DNA from: a virus
Taxonomy: Duplodnaviria > Heunggongvirae > Uroviricota > Caudoviricetes
Direction: 5' to 3' (one strand)
IMG/VR virus record: IMGVR_UViG_2617271049_000009
Coordinates: 1 to 40,392 of that record
DNA length: 40,392 nucleotides
The notes under the pieces: model-generated
Database searches by the model: none
What the model was told of the DNA's origin: nothing
The model's input: only the letters and a program-made list of their open reading frames with translations
In this document: one piece after another, positions 1,197 to 39,024 of the stretch
How positions within the stretch are numbered: the first letter of the stretch is position 1
How the letters are laid out: every line of letters begins with the position of its first letter
Translations under genes and position numbers: made by a program

Positions 1197-1224
1197 GCGG
1201 GTTCAACTCCCGCCAGCTCCACCA
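1197..1224 (+). other. 28-nt fragment matching the 3' terminus of tmRNA (ssrA): T-arm, acceptor 3' strand and CCA; likely relic attachment-site copy
   Basis: Sequence GCGGGTTCAACTCCCGCCAGCTCCACCA read directly; matches the E. coli ssrA 3' end as I recall it; upstream sequence diverges, so not a complete tmRNA or tRNA. Confidence 0.5.
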
Positions 1225-1352
1225 ATCATGATTGGACGGTGCAGAACAACACCAATAAAAACAGGAAGTTAGCAGTCTCAGCAGGACACCGACCAGACGG
1301 TGAGGAGACAAAAAAGGATACGCAAAGGAGCCGCGGCTCCCAAGTGACATGA

Positions 1353-1383
1353 AAGCCCGCTGATGCGGGCTTTTTCGTTTTTA
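1353..1383 (+). terminator. Rho-independent terminator-like hairpin downstream of the ssrA-like fragment
   Basis: AGCCCGC-TGAT-GCGGGCT stem-loop followed by TTTTTCGTTTTT. Confidence 0.5.
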
Positions 1384-1768
1384 TTACCTGCGGCAACACG
1401 CTATCCCTCTTCGTGTTATGGGATGGAATTCCTTTTTACCTTCATTGGTACTTTCGGATACCAGATAACACCATTACCTATTTGACCAATGGCAGCGAAG
1501 CTGGTTTAAATAACCTCTCTAGCAAACAAGTACAACTAAGTTAAGTGGCCAAAAAAATCGCAATAAAACGTGCAATTACATTAACTAAGTAGGACGTTTT
1601 TAACACAAAAACATCGATTAAAAAACGCACTGTGACAAACACTGAAAAAACAAGCATCACACACATTTTTTATTCATGTTTATCAATATGTTAAAACATA
1701 ACCTTACTAATCTTGAATTCATCATCCGCTAATGTAGTTATATTATAAATAGCGCAGTGTGACACTCA

Positions 1769-3277
1769 ATGAAACCATCCATAGAACAACTTCTACATAT
1801 CTACGGGCCGATGTCCTCATCTGCCTTAAGAGAAAAACTGATAGCCAATGGCCTAACAGAAGTTAACGCCAGACAGCGAATCTCCCGCGTTGGAGGTGAT
1901 GTTCAACGTTTTACTCATTTTTCTTTGCCCAAAAATGAAGCATTTCTCTATCTGACAAAGGACTATAACTCTCGTCGATATTGGATTGCATTGCTTGAAA
2001 GTCATGTAAATGCAAGAACAGTCTATGCTCACACCTTTTTCGCTTTCCACCCTTATCAAGGGGCGATCCCGACATATCTTTTTAGCAAGGTTTCAGGGAG
2101 TCCGGACAAACTGAAGGGACACATTGCGTCAAGCCGTCTTGAAGCGCAATTGCTTAAAGGTTCAGTTCTGCGTAGGGAAGTTGATGTCGTTTTGGGGGAT
2201 TGTCTTGTTACTTACATAAATAATATTAACGGGGTAACGGATACCCAACATGTCCGAAACCAATTGCTGGTTGAAGATATTCTCATTAAAGGTGTAGCTG
2301 ACTGGATTAGACACAATGGCCTTGGCAGCTTTAATAAGGTCCAAGTCCGTAACTCTCAGAATATGCCTTCATTTAGCCATCACCATTGGGACATATGTGC
2401 TCCGTCATATATTATGCCTTTAGCAACAGTACAAAAAGGTGAAATGAGTAATGGCTTCATTGTTGCAGATGTCATATACAATGATTTAGATAGCAAAAGC
2501 ATCCAAACCTATCTCACGAAAGTACAGCGATGCAGAAATATGCGAAATACTCGCCCGTTTCTAGCTATGCTGATTGCAGAACGTTTTGATCCAGAAGCCT
2601 TTCGCCTTGCGAAACAAGCTGGTGTAATGGCTACAACAGTATCTAACCTACTTGGTCAAGACATTTCAGCACTACTGTCCAGTTTATTAAATACTCTTAA
2701 TCGTGCCGGTGCCATTGCGGCAGCAAACCCAGAAAAAATCAACGAACTATTTAAAGGACTTACGAGGATTGAAGGCGCCGCAATCAATATAAGAGGCGTA
2801 ATGTTTGAAATGTTAGTTGGTCACATCGTACTGAAAACCCAAAATGTCAGCACTGTTGACTTGAATAAACAAATCAGTACCGAGGCAGGTAAGGCTGAAA
2901 TAGATGTGATTGGTTTTAGAGGCGAAGCAGAAATTAAGTGCTACGAATGTAAAGGCTATGAAGTTAAGCGACTAATTTCAGTCGAAATGATCGAAAAGTG
3001 GCTCGAACGAGTTCAACGCATCAGAAAATTCTACAGTCAGATTCATGTGTACCGTGACCGAAAAATGACTTTTTCATTCTGGACCTCATCAGATTTTGAA
3101 CCTGAAGCACTTGAGCTGCTGCTTCATCAGAAGCAAAGAAATACAAAAATATCATTAGACTGGAAAAATGGACGTGACATTCTTTCCATTGTTAAGGAAG
3201 ACAATCTGAAATCAATTGCAGATGTTCTTCAGGAACATTATCTTCGACACCCACTGGCTCCTGATGCAGATATGTAA
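1769..3277 (+). CDS. hypothetical 502-aa protein; predicted N-terminal winged-helix-like region and C-terminal PD-(D/E)xK-like nuclease motif; candidate defence or restriction-type cargo gene
   Basis: Long uninterrupted ORF with ATG start, convergent with the invertase gene; C-terminal segment AEIDVIGFRGEAEIKCYECKGYE fits the hhhD-x(n)-(E/D)xK pattern; lower GC than phage core genes; sits where e14 carries mcrA. Confidence 0.7.
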   Translation: MKPSIEQLLHIYGPMSSSALREKLIANGLTEVNARQRISRVGGDVQRFTHFSLPKNEAFLYLTKDYNSRRYWIALLESHVNARTVYAHTFFAFHPYQGAIPTYLFSKVSGSPDKLKGHIASSRLEAQLLKGSVLRREVDVVLGDCLVTYINNINGVTDTQHVRNQLLVEDILIKGVADWIRHNGLGSFNKVQVRNSQNMPSFSHHHWDICAPSYIMPLATVQKGEMSNGFIVADVIYNDLDSKSIQTYLTKVQRCRNMRNTRPFLAMLIAERFDPEAFRLAKQAGVMATTVSNLLGQDISALLSSLLNTLNRAGAIAAANPEKINELFKGLTRIEGAAINIRGVMFEMLVGHIVLKTQNVSTVDLNKQISTEAGKAEIDVIGFRGEAEIKCYECKGYEVKRLISVEMIEKWLERVQRIRKFYSQIHVYRDRKMTFSFWTSSDFEPEALELLLHQKQRNTKISLDWKNGRDILSIVKEDNLKSIADVLQEHYLRHPLAPDADM

Positions 3278-3505: not shown

Positions 3506-4060
3506 CTAATCCCTGCCTACAGGAAATTTTCGGTATAGTGTTGACACTCCTACATCATAAATTAATGCTACGCGCTGACGCGTTTCTCCTGCAGCGATTA
3601 GTCTCCCTGCCTGCGCCCACTGCTCATCTGTTAGTTTTGGCTTACGTCCACCAATTCGTCCCTGTGCGCGAGCAGCTTCCAGTCCAGCTTTTGTTCGTTC
3701 AACAATCAGTTCACGCTCCATTTCAGCCAGGGCACCCATCACATGAAAGAAAAAGCGCCCCATTGGGGTACTAGTATCAATTGAATCCGTCAGACTACGA
3801 AAGTTGATGCCTCGTTCGCGCAACTCCTCAACCAGAATGACCAGATGCCGCATACTACGCCCCAGCCGATCCAGCTTCCAGACAACCAGAGTGTCACCTG
3901 CCGATAATGTCCTGAGCAGTTTTTTCAGTCCAGGCCTTTCGGACTTTGTACCGCTTATCTTGTCTTCAAAAATCAGCTCGCATCCTGCACAGTTCAGCGC
4001 ATTACGTTGTAGATCTGTGTTCTGGTCATTTGTTGACACACGTACATAGCCAATAAGCAT
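3506..4060 (-). CDS. pin: site-specific DNA invertase, serine recombinase of the Pin/Gin/Hin/Cin family (184 aa from MLIGYVRVSTNDQ)
   Basis: N-terminus MLIGYVRVSTNDQ with catalytic-serine context, resolvase-type domain and C-terminal HTH (YDVGVSTLYRKFP); adjacent to inverted repeats inside a tail-fibre gene. Confidence 0.9.
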   Translation of the reverse strand: MLIGYVRVSTNDQNTDLQRNALNCAGCELIFEDKISGTKSERPGLKKLLRTLSAGDTLVVWKLDRLGRSMRHLVILVEELRERGINFRSLTDSIDTSTPMGRFFFHVMGALAEMERELIVERTKAGLEAARAQGRIGGRKPKLTDEQWAQAGRLIAAGETRQRVALIYDVGVSTLYRKFPVGRD

Positions 4061-4086: not shown

Positions 4087-4587
4087 ATGATGCCATTTGC
4101 TCGTTATTTCTGCATTTTCATAAACGTTGGTTTGGGAGAAGGTTCGGCATTACCCGTTGGTGTGCCTGTTCCGTGGCCTTCAGCCACTCCGCCAACAGGA
4201 TGGCTGAAATGCAATGGTGCGGCTTTTTCTGCTGAAGAATACCCGGAACTGGCAAAGGCTTACCCGACAAATAAATTGCCTGATTTACGCGGTGAGTTTA
4301 TTCGTGGCTGGGATGACGGTCGTTCAGTAGATACTGGTCGCAGCGTTATGTCTGCACAGAGCGCGCGTGTTGGTTATATTAAATTTGATATGGGAATTTA
4401 TGGTATTCCTGCAGGTACGGGCTCACTTATTTTGTCCAATGATATCTTAATTACGGGTCATGACAGTAATGGCTCAAGCCTATTGCTGAACAACTCTAAT
4501 GAGCGGGCAATTGGTGAAATGTATGTCGTTCCTGCCGATACTCGCCCACGGAATATCGCATTTAACTATATCGTGAGGGCTGCATAA
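4087..4587 (+). CDS. alternative tail-fibre C-terminal variable segment (166 aa), silent in the present orientation; e14 StfE-like
   Basis: ORF begins inside the inverted repeat with the same peptide (MPFARYFCIFINVGL) as the minus-strand copy; stop overlaps start of the downstream assembly gene (TAATG); same length as e14 StfE as I recall it. Confidence 0.65.
   Translation: MMPFARYFCIFINVGLGEGSALPVGVPVPWPSATPPTGWLKCNGAAFSAEEYPELAKAYPTNKLPDLRGEFIRGWDDGRSVDTGRSVMSAQSARVGYIKFDMGIYGIPAGTGSLILSNDILITGHDSNGSSLLLNNSNERAIGEMYVVPADTRPRNIAFNYIVRAA
4089..4145. repeat. left inverted repeat of the invertible tail-fibre segment (contains the putative crossover site near 4115..4140)
   Basis: ~57 bp identical except one mismatch to the reverse complement of 5959..6015; contains a TTTTCATAAACGTTGGTTTGGGAGAA element resembling hix/gix-type sites. 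Confidence 0.75.
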
Positions 4588-5199
4588 TGGATAACGCTGT
4601 ATTAAATAGCGAGTTTATTGCTACAAAGGCGGGAAATATTACCGTCTATAACTATGATGGCGAAACGCGGGAATATATTTCCACTTCAAATGAATATCTT
4701 GCCATTGGTGTCGGTATCCCTGCATATTCCTGTTTAGACGCTCCTGGTACATATAAGGCTGGTTATACAATTTGCCGTTCTGTGGATTTAAAATCATGGG
4801 AATATGTGTCAGACCATCGCGGTGAAATCGTCTATAACACCGAAACGGGAGACGCCAAAGAAATCACAGCTCCGGGTGATTATCCAGAAAATACAACCAC
4901 TATCGCCCCATTAACGCCATACGATAAATGGGATGGTGAGAAATGGGTGACCGATACTGAGGCACNNNNNNNNNNGCGCTGCAGTAGACGCGGCAGAAGC
5001 ACAGCGTCAGTCACTGATTGATACTGCAATGGCTTCCATTAGTCTGATTCAGCTGAAATTACAGGCCGGACGGAATTTGACGCAGTCAGAAACCAGCCGA
5101 CTTAACACGGTGTTGGATTACATTGACGCGGTGACGGCAACAGATACCAGCACCGCGCCGGATGTTATCTGGCCTGAACTGCCGGAGACTGCGCAATAA
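4587..5199 (+). CDS. tail fibre assembly protein (Tfa), interrupted by a 10-N gap at 4966..4975
   Basis: N-terminal part ends at the gap; after the gap a different frame gives the conserved Tfa C-terminus (...DYIDAVTATDTSTAPDVIWPELPETAQ) ending at TAA 5197..5199. Confidence 0.7.
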
Positions 5200-5334
5200 A
5201 CTCACCATCAATATATAAATCCCCCTGCTGTGTGTCAGCAGGGCATTCTTTCCATATTAATGATGGATGGAATCTTCCTTCAGGATTAATTTCCGTTATC
5301 TCTTCTACTTTATTTTCTTCAATTCTTGCCCACA
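5165..5334 (-). CDS. short tail-fibre-assembly-like ORF (56 aa) downstream of the active variable segment; possibly truncated
   Basis: ATG at 5334 with GAGGT SD, 9 nt after the stop of the upstream tail-fibre segment; lacks the conserved Tfa C-terminus and overlaps the 3' end of the plus-strand tfa. Confidence 0.35.
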
Positions 5335-5342
5335 TATGAACC

Positions 5343-6014
5343 TCACCAGTAAATATAAACTGCTCCATCTGCTCCGGCACCCGACTGACCCGTTGATGAA
5401 TTAGGACATAATCCAGCACCGCCACCTCCAGGCCCAACTGCTGATACCGCTTTTCCGTTAGCTGTATCTCTGAATGAACCTGCTCCTCCGGGGCCACCAC
5501 CAGAACCACCATTACCAGCTCCCGATGCGGCAGAAGCAATGGAACCTGGAGAACCTGGCCCAAGCGATGTATTAATTGTTCCCCCGACACCAACTGCGCC
5601 TAACCCTCCGGAAGGCTGGCCTCCGCTATAGCCTCCGGAAGCTGACATGTAAGTCCCGAAACTGCTCGAGCCACCATTTTTACCGTTTACAGAAATACCA
5701 GACACAGGTGCACCACCGGCACCAACCGTAATCGAAACACTGTTTATACCAGTTAAATCTACCAGCCCCTCAGCAACTCCGCCCCCACCACCTCCTCCGC
5801 CACATGTAACGGCTGAAGCGGTTGTTGAACCTATCCCTCCTGACGCACCGCCACCAATAACTTTGACGTAACATTTTCTTCCTTTGCGCAACTCTTCAGG
5901 AACAGTCCAGCTTGTTACTCCAGCCGTTGTGAAGGCAACCAGATTTCTGAACCCAAATGAACCTTCTCTCAAACCAACGTTTATGAAAATGCAGAAATAA
6001 CGAGCAAATGGCAT
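5343..6014 (-). CDS. tail-fibre C-terminal variable segment, glycine-rich (223 aa), currently joined to the constant part
   Basis: Only open frame through the right inverted repeat on the minus strand; Gly/Ser-rich low-complexity body typical of fibre tips; contiguous with the constant N-terminal part across the gap. Confidence 0.6.
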   Translation of the reverse strand: MPFARYFCIFINVGLREGSFGFRNLVAFTTAGVTSWTVPEELRKGRKCYVKVIGGGASGGIGSTTASAVTCGGGGGGGGVAEGLVDLTGINSVSITVGAGGAPVSGISVNGKNGGSSSFGTYMSASGGYSGGQPSGGLGAVGVGGTINTSLGPGSPGSIASAASGAGNGGSGGGPGGAGSFRDTANGKAVSAVGPGGGGAGLCPNSSTGQSGAGADGAVYIYW

Positions 6015-6015: not shown

Positions 6016-6025
6016 NNNNNNNNNN

Positions 6026-9977: not shown

Positions 9978-11307
9978 TGCACTGGCACCTTCAGAGGGAT
10001 CACCGGCACAAAGCCGGGATGCGTAATGGCATTACGCCGGATAATGTCCGCGTCACGCGCCGCGTTATCAAACCAGGTCGCAGCCAGCACCAGCGCGGGT
10101 AAAACCTCATCCGGCGTGCGCTGAATGATCCGAGCAGACTGTTCAAGGCGCGTGTTGATATCCGCATTCAGATCTGCTTTCACCCGGCGCAGCGCCAGAA
10201 ACAGCGCATCACTGGTTGTACGGGACAACTCCTTATCAATTGCCGTATTCAGTGTGTCGCGAATGTCGGTCAGTTCTTCCCACGTTGGCAGGTCAACCGT
10301 GTTTTTCACCGCCGGTGCATTGTTCAGTGCCGGATGCGTGACAGAAGGCCAGCCGGTGCTCTGCGCGGGTGTTGTTGCCTGCCCCACTGCGGCATTCTGC
10401 ATCACCGCGGAAGTTGTGGGCGCAGGCAATCGTGTGACGGCATACGCCGCTTCGCTGATTGCGGTCGTACGAAGGGTGCTGGCAACCACGTTACGCTGCT
10501 GCGTCGCCGTGGCGGTGGTTTTACTGTCCGTTTTCCAGACGCCGCGCGGTTGCAGATCGCTGCCGAGGCTGACACCGGAAAGCGTTTTGATCATGGTGAC
10601 CAGGTCGCTGGCGTTACCATAAAGGCGTTTCCCGGTACGCCACATTTTCTGCACCTGCTCAACGAAATTTTTGCCTGACGATGGTGGCGGCAGAAGTACC
10701 GAGATATCCCCCTGCAACAGCCTGGCAGCATCCGATACGGCAGAATCCACCACTTTCATCGCATCAGAAACATACCCAAGCATTGTGCTGGCATTACCGA
10801 CGACGTCGTTCTGCACAAAATCTGCCACGCCATCGATACTGAAACCACTGAAGCTGTCACTGATGCAGTCATCCAGTGCAGAACAGGATGACATCAGCGT
10901 CTGCGCCGTCGCCGCANNNNNNNNNNAGTGGGGTAAGAGAGTTCTCCCGCTTCGACAAACTTCAGGTCAAAGCGGACAATACGCCCTTCACTCTTCGATG
11001 TGCTGACCCGAACTTCCCCATCAACACAGACTTTCAGCTCACCGTAAGTCGGATGGACAAGCGTGCCGGGACCGGGTTTATTCAGCGCGTCAATCAGGCG
11101 ATCGCGCTGGTCAAAGCAGTCATCTCCCACCACATAAGCTGTGATGGACGGGCGGAAAGTGATTTTCCCCAGGTCTTCGGTATAGGGTTTGTCGCGGTTC
11201 GGGTATTCGTGCGTTTCCACACGACGACCGGTTCCCGCACTTTCTTCTTCAACCTTAAACGGCACACCGCGAAATGACGCGTCCTGAAGTCTGTCTTTCC
11301 ACGTCAT
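9974..11307 (-). CDS. DNA circulation protein (Mu gpN-like), interrupted by a 10-N gap at 10917..10926
   Basis: N-terminal motif MTWKDRLQDASFRGVPFKV recalled as characteristic of the Mu N family; two ORF pieces in line across the gap; the ORF extends to 11349 but ATG at 11307 is the likely start. Confidence 0.6.
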
Positions 11308-30692: not shown

Positions 30693-31634
30693 TCACCCCC
30701 TGAATCCTGCCGGGATCTGGCTGTAGTCCACGTTGTCGTAACTGGATTTGAAGTACGGGTCTTCGCGTTTTTCGGTGTACGTGCTTACGGACGGCGATAA
30801 GCGCAGGGAAAGCTCATCCCATTTTTCCCGCAGCTTCGACGGGCTGAGCACGTTACGGCACCAGAACGGATCGCGGCTGACGCGGCTGTACATCTCGCAG
30901 ATTTGTTTGTGAGTACGACCATCCTGCACACACATCAGGCGAATTTCGTTTGCCCAGGCTGTCCAGTTCGGTTCTTTGGGACGAACCACCTCGCCGTCAC
31001 ATTCGGCAGCCTGCTCGTACAGGGCAATGATTTTTTTCCAGAGCCACTGTGCACAGGTCAAATCATCCTGCGTTCCCCACTGGCGCTTTTTAGGGCTGAA
31101 TACAACCGCATCAGGATGGCGAGTTAAAAAATCCTGTTCAGCCGTCTGCGTGTCCGGTTGCGAAGCGTCCGGACGAGAAGGTTTTTTATCTGACGGATCA
31201 TGTTTTGATTTTACTGACGGATCCCCGCCAGATTCTGACGGGTGAAAACCCGCTTTTTTGCCAGATTTCGACGCATCAAATTTTGACGGGTCAGATTTTG
31301 ATGCGTCAGATTTTGACGGGTCAGAATCTGACAGTTGAGAAAATGCCGCTGCCTGAAGCTTCGCAACGTTAAGCTGATAAACATTCGACGCATTGCGGTT
31401 ACCCTGGCGACGCGCCTTACGCGTTAACCAGCCTTCTGCTTCCAGCCGTGCGATAGCCGTTCTGACGGTACTCATCCCCGCGCCAATCTGACGGGCAATG
31501 GTTTCAATTGATGGCCAGCACACACCTTCGTCATTACTGAAATCAGCCAGGCGGGCCATAATTGCCACGCTGGATAACTTCATGCCTGATGCAGCGCAAC
31601 CATCCCATACATAGCCGGTTAATTTAGTGCTCAT
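30693..31634 (-). CDS. replication initiation protein (O-like, 313 aa) with internal iteron-encoded linker repeats
   Basis: N-terminal HTH-like DNA-binding region, central D/S/K-rich repeat linker encoded by tandem DNA repeats, Trp-rich C-terminal region; position downstream of the CII-like gene. Confidence 0.7.
   Translation of the reverse strand: MSTKLTGYVWDGCAASGMKLSSVAIMARLADFSNDEGVCWPSIETIARQIGAGMSTVRTAIARLEAEGWLTRKARRQGNRNASNVYQLNVAKLQAAAFSQLSDSDPSKSDASKSDPSKFDASKSGKKAGFHPSESGGDPSVKSKHDPSDKKPSRPDASQPDTQTAEQDFLTRHPDAVVFSPKKRQWGTQDDLTCAQWLWKKIIALYEQAAECDGEVVRPKEPNWTAWANEIRLMCVQDGRTHKQICEMYSRVSRDPFWCRNVLSPSKLREKWDELSLRLSPSVSTYTEKREDPYFKSSYDNVDYSQIPAGFRG
31185..31335. repeat. iteron array inside the replication gene (five tandem 15-bp units CAGATTTTGACGGGT at 31261..31335 plus degenerate copies upstream); putative origin
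   Basis: Tandem repeats read directly from the sequence. Confidence 0.65.
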
Positions 31635-37778: not shown

Positions 37779-37788
37779 NNNNNNNNNN

Positions 37789-38934
37789 GGTGAAATATGG
37801 TACGCCAGTTTCACATTGCCGAACGGTAAAAGATTTAAACAGTCTCTTGGAACAAAGGACAAAAGGCAGGCGACAGAACTCCATGACAAGCTAAAGGCTG
37901 AAGCATGGCGGGTCAGCAAACTTGGTGAAATACCTGATATAACGTTCGAGGAAGCGTGTGTCAGGTGGCTTGAAGAGAAAGCACATAAAAAATCACTGGA
38001 CGATGACAAAAGCCGGATCGGATTCTGGCTTCAACATTTCGCAGGAATGCAACTAAGAGACATTACTGAATCAAAAATTTATTCAGCAATGCAGAAAATG
38101 ACGAACCGGCGTCATGAGGAAAACTGGAAACTCAGGGCAGAAGCATGCAGAAAAAAAGGGAAACCTGTTCCAGAATACACGCCAAAACCAGCGTCCGTTG
38201 CAACGAAGGCTACGCATCTTTCATTTATAAAGGCCCTACTAAGAGCCGCAGAGCGTGAATGGAAAATGCTGGATAAGGCACCAATTATTAAAGTGCCTCA
38301 ACCAAAGAATAAACGGATCCGCTGGCTGGAGCCCCATGAAGCACAAAGGCTGATTGATGAATGTCCGGAGCCATTAAAGTCTGTTGTTGAATTTGCACTG
38401 GCAACAGGCTTAAGACGCTCGAACATCATCAACCTTGAATGGCAACAAATAGATATGCAGCGCCGGGTGGCATGGATAAACCCGGAAGAGAGTAAATCAA
38501 ACCGCGCAATTGGCGTTGCGCTGAATGATACTGCATGTCGCGTTTTGAAAAAACAAATCGGGAATCATCACCGTTGGGTATTTGTGTACAAGGAAAGCTG
38601 TACCAAACCAGACGGAACGAAAGCGCCAACAGTAAGGAAGATGCGGTATGACGCAAACACAGCCTGGAAAGCGGCGCTGAGACGGGCTGGTATTGATGAT
38701 TTCAGATTTCACGACTTGAGACACACCTGGGCAAGTTGGCTGGTTCAAGCCGGAGTCCCGTTGTCAGTGTTACAGGAAATGGGAGGCTGGGAGTCTATCG
38801 AAATGGTTCGTCGATATGCTCACCTTGCACCTAATCACCTTACCGAACACGCACGGCAAATAGACTCGATCCTGAACCCATCGGTCCCAAATTCGTCCCA
38901 GTCAAAAAATAAGGAAGGTACTAATGATGTGTAA
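37789..38934 (+). CDS. int: tyrosine site-specific integrase; 5' end lost in the N gap
   Basis: Reading frame open from the gap ([16 protein letters not shown]...); C-terminal catalytic region with HDLRHTWAS...[15 protein letters not shown] (R, HxxR and Tyr motifs); ends 15 nt from the tRNA 3' end. Confidence 0.92.
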
Positions 38935-38948
38935 CTTATTGATTTAAA

Positions 38949-39024
38949 TGGTGCCGATAATAGGAGTCGAACCTACGACCTTCGCATTACGAATGCGCTG
39001 CTCTACCAACTGAGCTATATCGGC
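38949..39024 (-). tRNA. thrW: tRNA-Thr (anticodon CGT), phage attachment site
   Basis: Reverse complement reads GCCGATATAGCTCAGTTGGTAGAGCAGCGCATTCGTAATGCGAAGGTCGTAGGTTCGACTCCTATTATCGGCACCA, a 76-nt cloverleaf with CGT anticodon and encoded CCA. Confidence 0.9.

Follow-up and report, generated by a model that had tools for sequence, protein, structure and literature searches.

A stand-alone gene in the variable slot of an e14-like prophage encodes a candidate defence endonuclease with two PD-(D/E)xK folds

Locus and gene

The window analysed here, the whole stretch of 40,392 nucleotides (nt) of the IMG/VR virus record IMGVR_UViG_2617271049_000009 (Caudoviricetes), is an e14-like, Mu-tail-like prophage that carries, close to its left end, an open reading frame (ORF) for 502 amino acids (aa) found in E. 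coli. The ORF occupies positions 1769 to 3277 of the plus strand, stop codon included, and starts with ATG. RefSeq holds the identical coding sequence as hypothetical protein WP_032223435.1, and a literature search found no papers that mention the RefSeq accessions. An earlier note, made from the sequence alone, had placed the ORF at exactly these coordinates of the ORF list and had described it as convergent with the Pin invertase and lower in GC than the phage core. Both descriptions hold: the invertase gene lies at 3506-4060 on the minus strand, and the ORF has a GC content of 41.2% (34.9% at third codon positions) compared with about 54% in the prophage core. The ratio of nonsynonymous to synonymous substitution rates (dN/dS) against the Morganella orthologue, which is 82% identical, is 0.08, and the ORF is under strong purifying selection. 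Given this value and the approximately 1,250 near-full-length clusters of its family, the ORF is a genuine gene rather than a chance reading frame. Upstream of it, an AT-rich intergenic region (1400-1768, plus strand, 34% GC) presumably holds the gene's own promoter; a simple scan of the plus strand revealed no good sigma-70 consensus or Shine-Dalgarno sequence there.

The gene fills a slot between the prophage end and the invertase, since at the left boundary (1197-1374, plus strand) 28 nt of the 3' end of ssrA are repeated (1197-1224), a remnant of the attachment site (att) such as is typical of elements that integrate at ssrA, and an intrinsic terminator follows at 1351-1374. Sister prophages that have integrated at ssrA have the sequence from position 1197 onwards in common with the window. 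Rfam also gave a weak match resembling RsmY across the terminator hairpin (1351-1445, minus strand; E=0.03, 21 bits where the gathering score is 57), most likely by chance. The right boundary is formed by pin/pinE, which encodes a Resolvase domain with HTH_7 (E=1e-51). The gene order of e14 in strain K-12 is ymfQ-stfP-tfaP-tfaE-stfE-pinE-mcrA-prophage end and the order here is ymfQ-...-pin-ORF-prophage end, so that the analogy to the mcrA position drawn in the earlier note stands as far as the slot is concerned. It does not extend to orientation: mcrA is co-directional with pinE, whereas the present gene is convergent with pin.

Occupants of the slot are swapped between strains. The gene sits in the slot of eight out of 5,426 complete E. 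coli genomes and most sister prophages lack it. Strain MINF_1D instead carries a type II restriction enzyme, a Dcm-type methylase and PD-T4-3 (PADLOC E=2.4e-140; locus L012, 5003-5776), strain TB06052 an SOS-response peptidase and a gene of no assigned function, and strain HE302 three genes of no assigned function. As PD-T4-3 and the type II restriction-modification (R-M) system of MINF_1D lie between prophage end and pinE, e14-like prophages have a defence hotspot between pin and att. The occupants in HE302 (L002, 4238-5962) and TB06052 (L013, 3582-4577), for which neither Pfam nor PADLOC gave a match, are further defence candidates. According to both the ORF list and the RefSeq annotation, the slot of the window itself contains no methylase.

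Domain architecture

The C-terminal part of the protein (residues ~337-502; 2777-3274, plus strand) is a canonical PD-(D/E)xK nuclease domain with an alpha-beta-beta-beta-alpha-beta core. It contains the motif AEIDVIGFRGEAEIKCYECK at residues 376-395 (2894-2953, plus strand), from which a restriction-endonuclease-like C-terminus had originally been proposed, and both the fold and the residue conservation agree with that proposal. Helix 1 bears E347, strand 2 bears E377-x-D379 and strand 3 bears E393-C-K395. In 221 full-length representatives with a median identity of 32% to the query, D379 is conserved in 100%, E393 in 99.5%, E347 in 94% and K395 in 92%, with arginine replacing the lysine in a further 7%.

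A second PD-(D/E)xK domain is predicted in the middle of the protein (residues ~157-296; 2237-2656, plus strand). Modelled alone, it reached a predicted local distance difference test (pLDDT) value of 94.6. A structure search with this model returned nuclease folds: AF1548 (score 11.0), NucS (10.1), N.BspD6I (8.9), Can2 (8.5), the small subunit of R.BspD6I (8.4), Card1 (8.3), Cap4 (8.2) and NgoMIV (8.1). By its model, then, the middle domain has the PD-(D/E)xK core fold combined with a non-canonical set of residues. E169 (96%), D208 (96%), D234 (99.5%) and K251 (100%) are conserved among the same representatives; position 236, two residues after D234, is hydrophobic instead of lysine, and the invariant K251 resides on the following helix. 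The middle-domain profile alone gave nothing significant against PDB or Pfam. Aligned to the C-terminal domain with hhalign, it gave a weak in-register match (P=1.3e-3) in which the helix-strand-helix elements that follow the VADV and YECK strands correspond, and for this reason an origin of the two domains by internal duplication is plausible, but no more than that. The best-ranked Foldseek matches to APOBEC3G (template modelling score ~0.13, root-mean-square deviation ~19-21 Å) were discarded as spurious two-domain alpha/beta matches. Between the two nuclease folds, the model shows a helical linker (residues ~297-336; 2657-2776, plus strand) with helices at 297-311 and 321-331 and lower pLDDT around 311-320.

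The N-terminal 156 residues are predicted to form two winged helices, each a unit of three helices and two strands, in an AlphaFold2 model of the protein built from 57 homologues (pLDDT 90.3, predicted template modelling score 0.86); this agrees with the helix-turn-helix or winged-helix look noted earlier. The first (residues ~1-66; 1769-1966, plus strand) has NARQRISR as its third helix, in which A34, R35 and R40 are kept in 95-99% of members. The second, with a connecting helix (residues ~67-156; 1967-2236, plus strand), consists in the model of helices at 85-92, 102-109 and 121-130 and strands at 99-101, 134-139 and 143-148. The assignment rests on the model because the region has no relative at the sequence level: its profile gave nothing significant against PDB and Pfam, and matches of separate domain profiles to the 434 repressor (E=0.6) and an EF-hand (E=0.68) were treated as noise. 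Since the middle-domain model returns nucleases, the overall architecture reads as winged helix, winged helix, restriction-endonuclease fold, linker and restriction-endonuclease fold.

Family and genomic contexts

The protein belongs to a widespread family without a name. Its profile matches approximately 1,250 clusters (50% identity) with E<=1e-3, of which 553 reach E<=1e-30, and nearly all matches run end to end over about 500 aa; the members come from Proteobacteria, Myxococcota, Lentisphaerae/Verrucomicrobia and other taxa. The earlier note had not recognised any named family, and indeed, whether the single sequence or a profile was searched, the query matched no family significantly in Pfam, NCBIfam, PHROGs, PADLOC or PDB sequences. 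The PADLOC comparison, proposed there, yielded LmuA at E=0.007 only. A tblastn search of 50,697 deposited phage genomes retrieved nothing. When 57 members were scanned singly, scattered weak matches appeared, which were confined to the C-terminal domain and to PD-(D/E)xK families: NERD in seven members, DUF4143 in six and Mrr_cat in three (best E=2.5e-6), along with DUF234, Card1_endonuc and PADLOC models named CARF_PDDEXK (E down to 1e-7). The family profile aligns AEIDV...ECK with ELDV...ECK of Card1.

Neighbourhoods were compared at 13 independent loci, which is a small sample; a profile search of genome contigs with a narrower alignment returned only seven loci. The gene lies on a mobile element in 13 of 13, the present prophage end included, and often near defence systems. 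The Morganella homologue is found in a lambdoid prophage between tail fibre genes and integrase, and another prophage homologue adjoins umuDC. In Victivallis, Caulobacteraceae and Desulforhopalus the gene directly follows an integrase, in Myxococcus it adjoins insertion sequence elements, and some homologues occur in plasmid-like regions. In an integrative and conjugative element (ICE) of Henriciella it is flanked by ardA and the type I R-M gene hsdR, and in a Tn7-like transposon that also bears Wadjet genes it is the first cargo gene after tniQ. A Gabija-like ATPase/helicase pair, HEPN-AbiU2 and ABC-3C components are also among the neighbours. When genes within 4 kb at the 13 loci were compared all against all by BLAST, no conserved partner emerged: umuDC-like genes at two loci were the only shared neighbours. 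Nor did any of the 13 contexts show a consistently linked methyltransferase, CRISPR or cyclase genes, or an immunity or antitoxin partner. Overall, the gene is stand-alone mobile-element cargo that resides beside defence systems.

The umuD/umuC-like genes near homologues belong to two unrelated elements (L010, 4847-6195; L016, 5604-6439), and a C-terminal UmuC fragment (DUF4113) is present in the slot of an E. coli sister prophage (L013, 4597-4812). These neighbours may be coincidental co-cargo.

Relation to known nucleases

Each of the known groups that resemble the protein lacks agreement with it in a defining feature, and the protein therefore lies outside Mrr, NucS, Can2/Card1, Shedu, Lamassu, Upx, McrA and the type IIS enzymes. 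The branch comprising AF1548 (PDB 1y88), Mrr and NucS has one nuclease domain per chain, whereas there are two here, and it shares no significant sequence similarity with the protein. The query itself has no Mrr_cat match, in contrast to three of the 57 members, Mrr_N was not matched, and the N-terminal domain of NucS is absent from the protein. For Lamassu, the window contains no SMC-like neighbour (LmuB) that would accompany the marginal LmuA score.

In sequence, the C-terminal domain is detectably closest to Can2/Card1 (DUF1887), CARF-PD-(D/E)xK effectors of type III CRISPR systems, with which it shares the ExD...ECK motif. Two nuclease domains act next to each other in those enzymes. In Can2/Card1 the pair arises by homodimerisation under control of a CARF domain that binds cyclic tetra-adenylate (cA4), whereas here the second domain is part of the same chain. 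No CARF domain was matched in Pfam, and the region upstream of the C-terminal domain is predicted to have a nuclease fold.

Type IIS enzymes (FokI, N.BspD6I with R.BspD6I, BsmI/Mva1269I) likewise arrange DNA-recognition domains followed by one or more PD-(D/E)xK domains in one chain, but show no sequence similarity to the protein. They recognise specific sequences and are accompanied by cognate methyltransferases, and no adjacent cognate methyltransferase exists at this gene. FokI cuts by dimerisation and BspD6I by means of a second subunit. Monomers with two active sites are established in BsmI and Mva1269I (PMC11889245, PMC3017599). A single-protein defence system with two PD-(D/E)xK domains, Upx, has recently been characterised (PMC13099982); it differs in size (1,272 aa), in its NTD-MD-CTD organisation (N-terminal, middle and C-terminal domains) without winged helices (PDB 9wuf) and in acting as a 3'-5' exonuclease on single-stranded DNA, and was not retrieved by any sequence search from the family.

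McrA of e14, PD-T4-3 and the type II R-M system of sister prophages occupy the identical slot between pin and the prophage end. McrA and PD-T4-3 are also single-gene nucleases that work without a methylase; still, McrA is an HNH enzyme with an N-terminal reader of 5-methylcytosine and PD-T4-3 belongs to the GIY-YIG class, so that neither is homologous to the present PD-(D/E)xK protein. A reader of Dam sites would kill E. coli, and the N-terminal region gave no sequence match to winged helices that read N6-methyladenine. END nucleases and type IV enzymes with fused winged helices (HhiV4I/DpnI-like) combine a reader with a restriction-type nuclease and sense modified DNA without a methylase (PMC12191111, PMC11037411). 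This logic resembles the one proposed below, except that END nucleases employ an inactive EndoIII sensor. The protein is predicted to work like known solitary restriction-type nucleases, with a distinctive compact layout of tandem nuclease folds and tandem winged helices.

Proposed function and alternatives

On balance, we favour the view that the gene encodes a stand-alone DNA endonuclease for defence which acts independently of a methyltransferase from the variable slot of an e14-like prophage. The restriction or abortive-infection type of nuclease proposed in the earlier note is in this sense supported, and extended, by fold, conservation and context. The two N-terminal winged helices would bind the target, either DNA or a feature of invading DNA, and the C-terminal domain would cut by its canonical E...D...ExK site. 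The middle domain, with its E...D...D...K set, could provide a second, rewired active site or act as a regulatory or DNA-binding partner. If the two nuclease-fold domains pack as an intramolecular pair, one molecule would suffice to cut DNA, and the pair would replace in cis what FokI achieves by dimerisation, BspD6I by its small subunit and Can2/Card1 by forming a homodimer. Because the hosts are Dam+/Dcm+ or of the CcrM type and no methylase accompanies the gene, self would have to be discriminated from non-self by a feature absent from host DNA. This could be a modification of phage DNA, as in type IV systems, or an infection-specific form of DNA or another trigger. The near-invariance of A34, R35 and R40 in the putative recognition helix makes a constant ligand likelier than variable sequences.

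A more detailed version of this reading is rather improbable as a whole: a single-chain, methylase-independent enzyme in which the canonical and the rewired sites form a pseudo-dimer, so that a monomer introduces a double-strand break, and in which the winged helices read a conserved mark of foreign DNA. Such an enzyme would represent a new, compact class. The rewired E-D-D site would take its lysine from the following helix, and the mark would be, for example, hypermodified bases rather than a sequence.

The strongest alternative concerns the number of active sites. The middle domain could be a catalytically dead module for DNA binding, effector interaction or dimerisation, comparable to the C-terminal domain of Sau3AI or the inactive restriction-endonuclease domains associated with NACHT, and cutting would then require dimerisation of C-terminal domains as in FokI. 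Several observations weigh against a second site and thus for this alternative: the canonical (D/E)xK lysine is absent, with a hydrophobic residue in its place, the domain has no sequence similarity to active families, and one member shows a very weak match to an inactive restriction-endonuclease family of Pfam (E=0.17). We regard a dead middle domain as a possibility to be taken seriously, if one with the lesser chance.

It is unlikely, and slightly more so, that the protein is an abortive-infection or trigger-activated nuclease without specificity. Such an enzyme would stay inactive until the winged helices or the middle domain sense either a protein of the phage or a nucleic acid specific to infection, and would then degrade DNA or RNA indiscriminately, similar to the effectors Can2, Card1, Cap4 and NucC or to Upx, but without a second-messenger sensor. 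Against this, no CARF or SAVED domain was found, the middle domain is modelled with a nuclease fold instead of a Rossmann-type one, cyclase and CRISPR genes are absent from the 13 contexts, and no immunity or antitoxin partner was identified.

A structure-specific nuclease for repair or recombination, or an accessory of integration or transposition that serves the mobile element (NucS-, Hjc- or TnsA-like), is very improbable: the fold matches include NucS and Holliday-junction resolvases, a homologue is called 'Holliday junction resolvase-like predicted endonuclease' in one source, integrases, the invertase and Tn7 transposition genes are frequent neighbours and umuDC-like genes adjoin in two loci, but the gene lies outside replication and recombination modules in a slot swapped between sister prophages, most of which dispense with it, its carriers (phage, ICE, Tn7-like element, plasmid) differ and have unrelated recombinases, and the Tn7-like element possesses a separate TnsA.

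With a defence endonuclease as the favoured function, there are good grounds to treat the gene as a candidate for a new family of single-gene defence systems. If this is correct, a widespread family without a name would be added to the anti-phage systems, and the protein would be the second dual PD-(D/E)xK defence protein after Upx and a much smaller one. Engineers of nickases or programmable cutters could then take an interest in a monomer of 57 kDa that combines two distinct nuclease sites with a separable winged-helix module for targeting, and a rewired middle site would show the restriction-endonuclease fold to be more plastic than known so far.

Further features of the window

The integrase end of the prophage (37816-38934) abuts a tRNA-Thr(CGT) gene at 38949-39024, and a thrW-derived direct repeat was not found at the left end. 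Strain MEI7BO1-21 has the pao locus on the left side of the prophage. This suggests that the two prophage ends derive from different integration modules, either in a recombinant prophage or through a rearrangement between prophages.

Just outside the att fragment, two overlapping ORFs of low GC (33%) lie on the minus strand (1-468 and 468-998) and travel with the slot in several strains. The products of the pair are a coiled-coil protein of 155 aa whose N-terminus contains a hydrophobic segment, and a multi-pass membrane protein of 176 aa that matches phrog_22626 (E=1.7e-26).

On the other side of pin, a Pin-invertible tail-fibre segment spans 4087-6014. The ORFs at 4087-4587 (plus strand) and 5343-6014 (minus strand) begin with the same 14 residues, MPFARYFCIFINVG, and the segment therefore has a conserved crossover region at both ends. 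The minus-strand tail-fibre ORF is extremely rich in glycine. Four runs of ten N (4966-4975, 6016-6025, 10917-10926 and 37779-37788) represent masked or unresolved bases, and two of them break tail-fibre and assembly ORFs, visible as XXXX in the translations. Finally, at 31262-31336, four to five CAGATTTTGACGGGT-like repeats phased at 15 nt resemble the iterons of a replication origin or an operator array.
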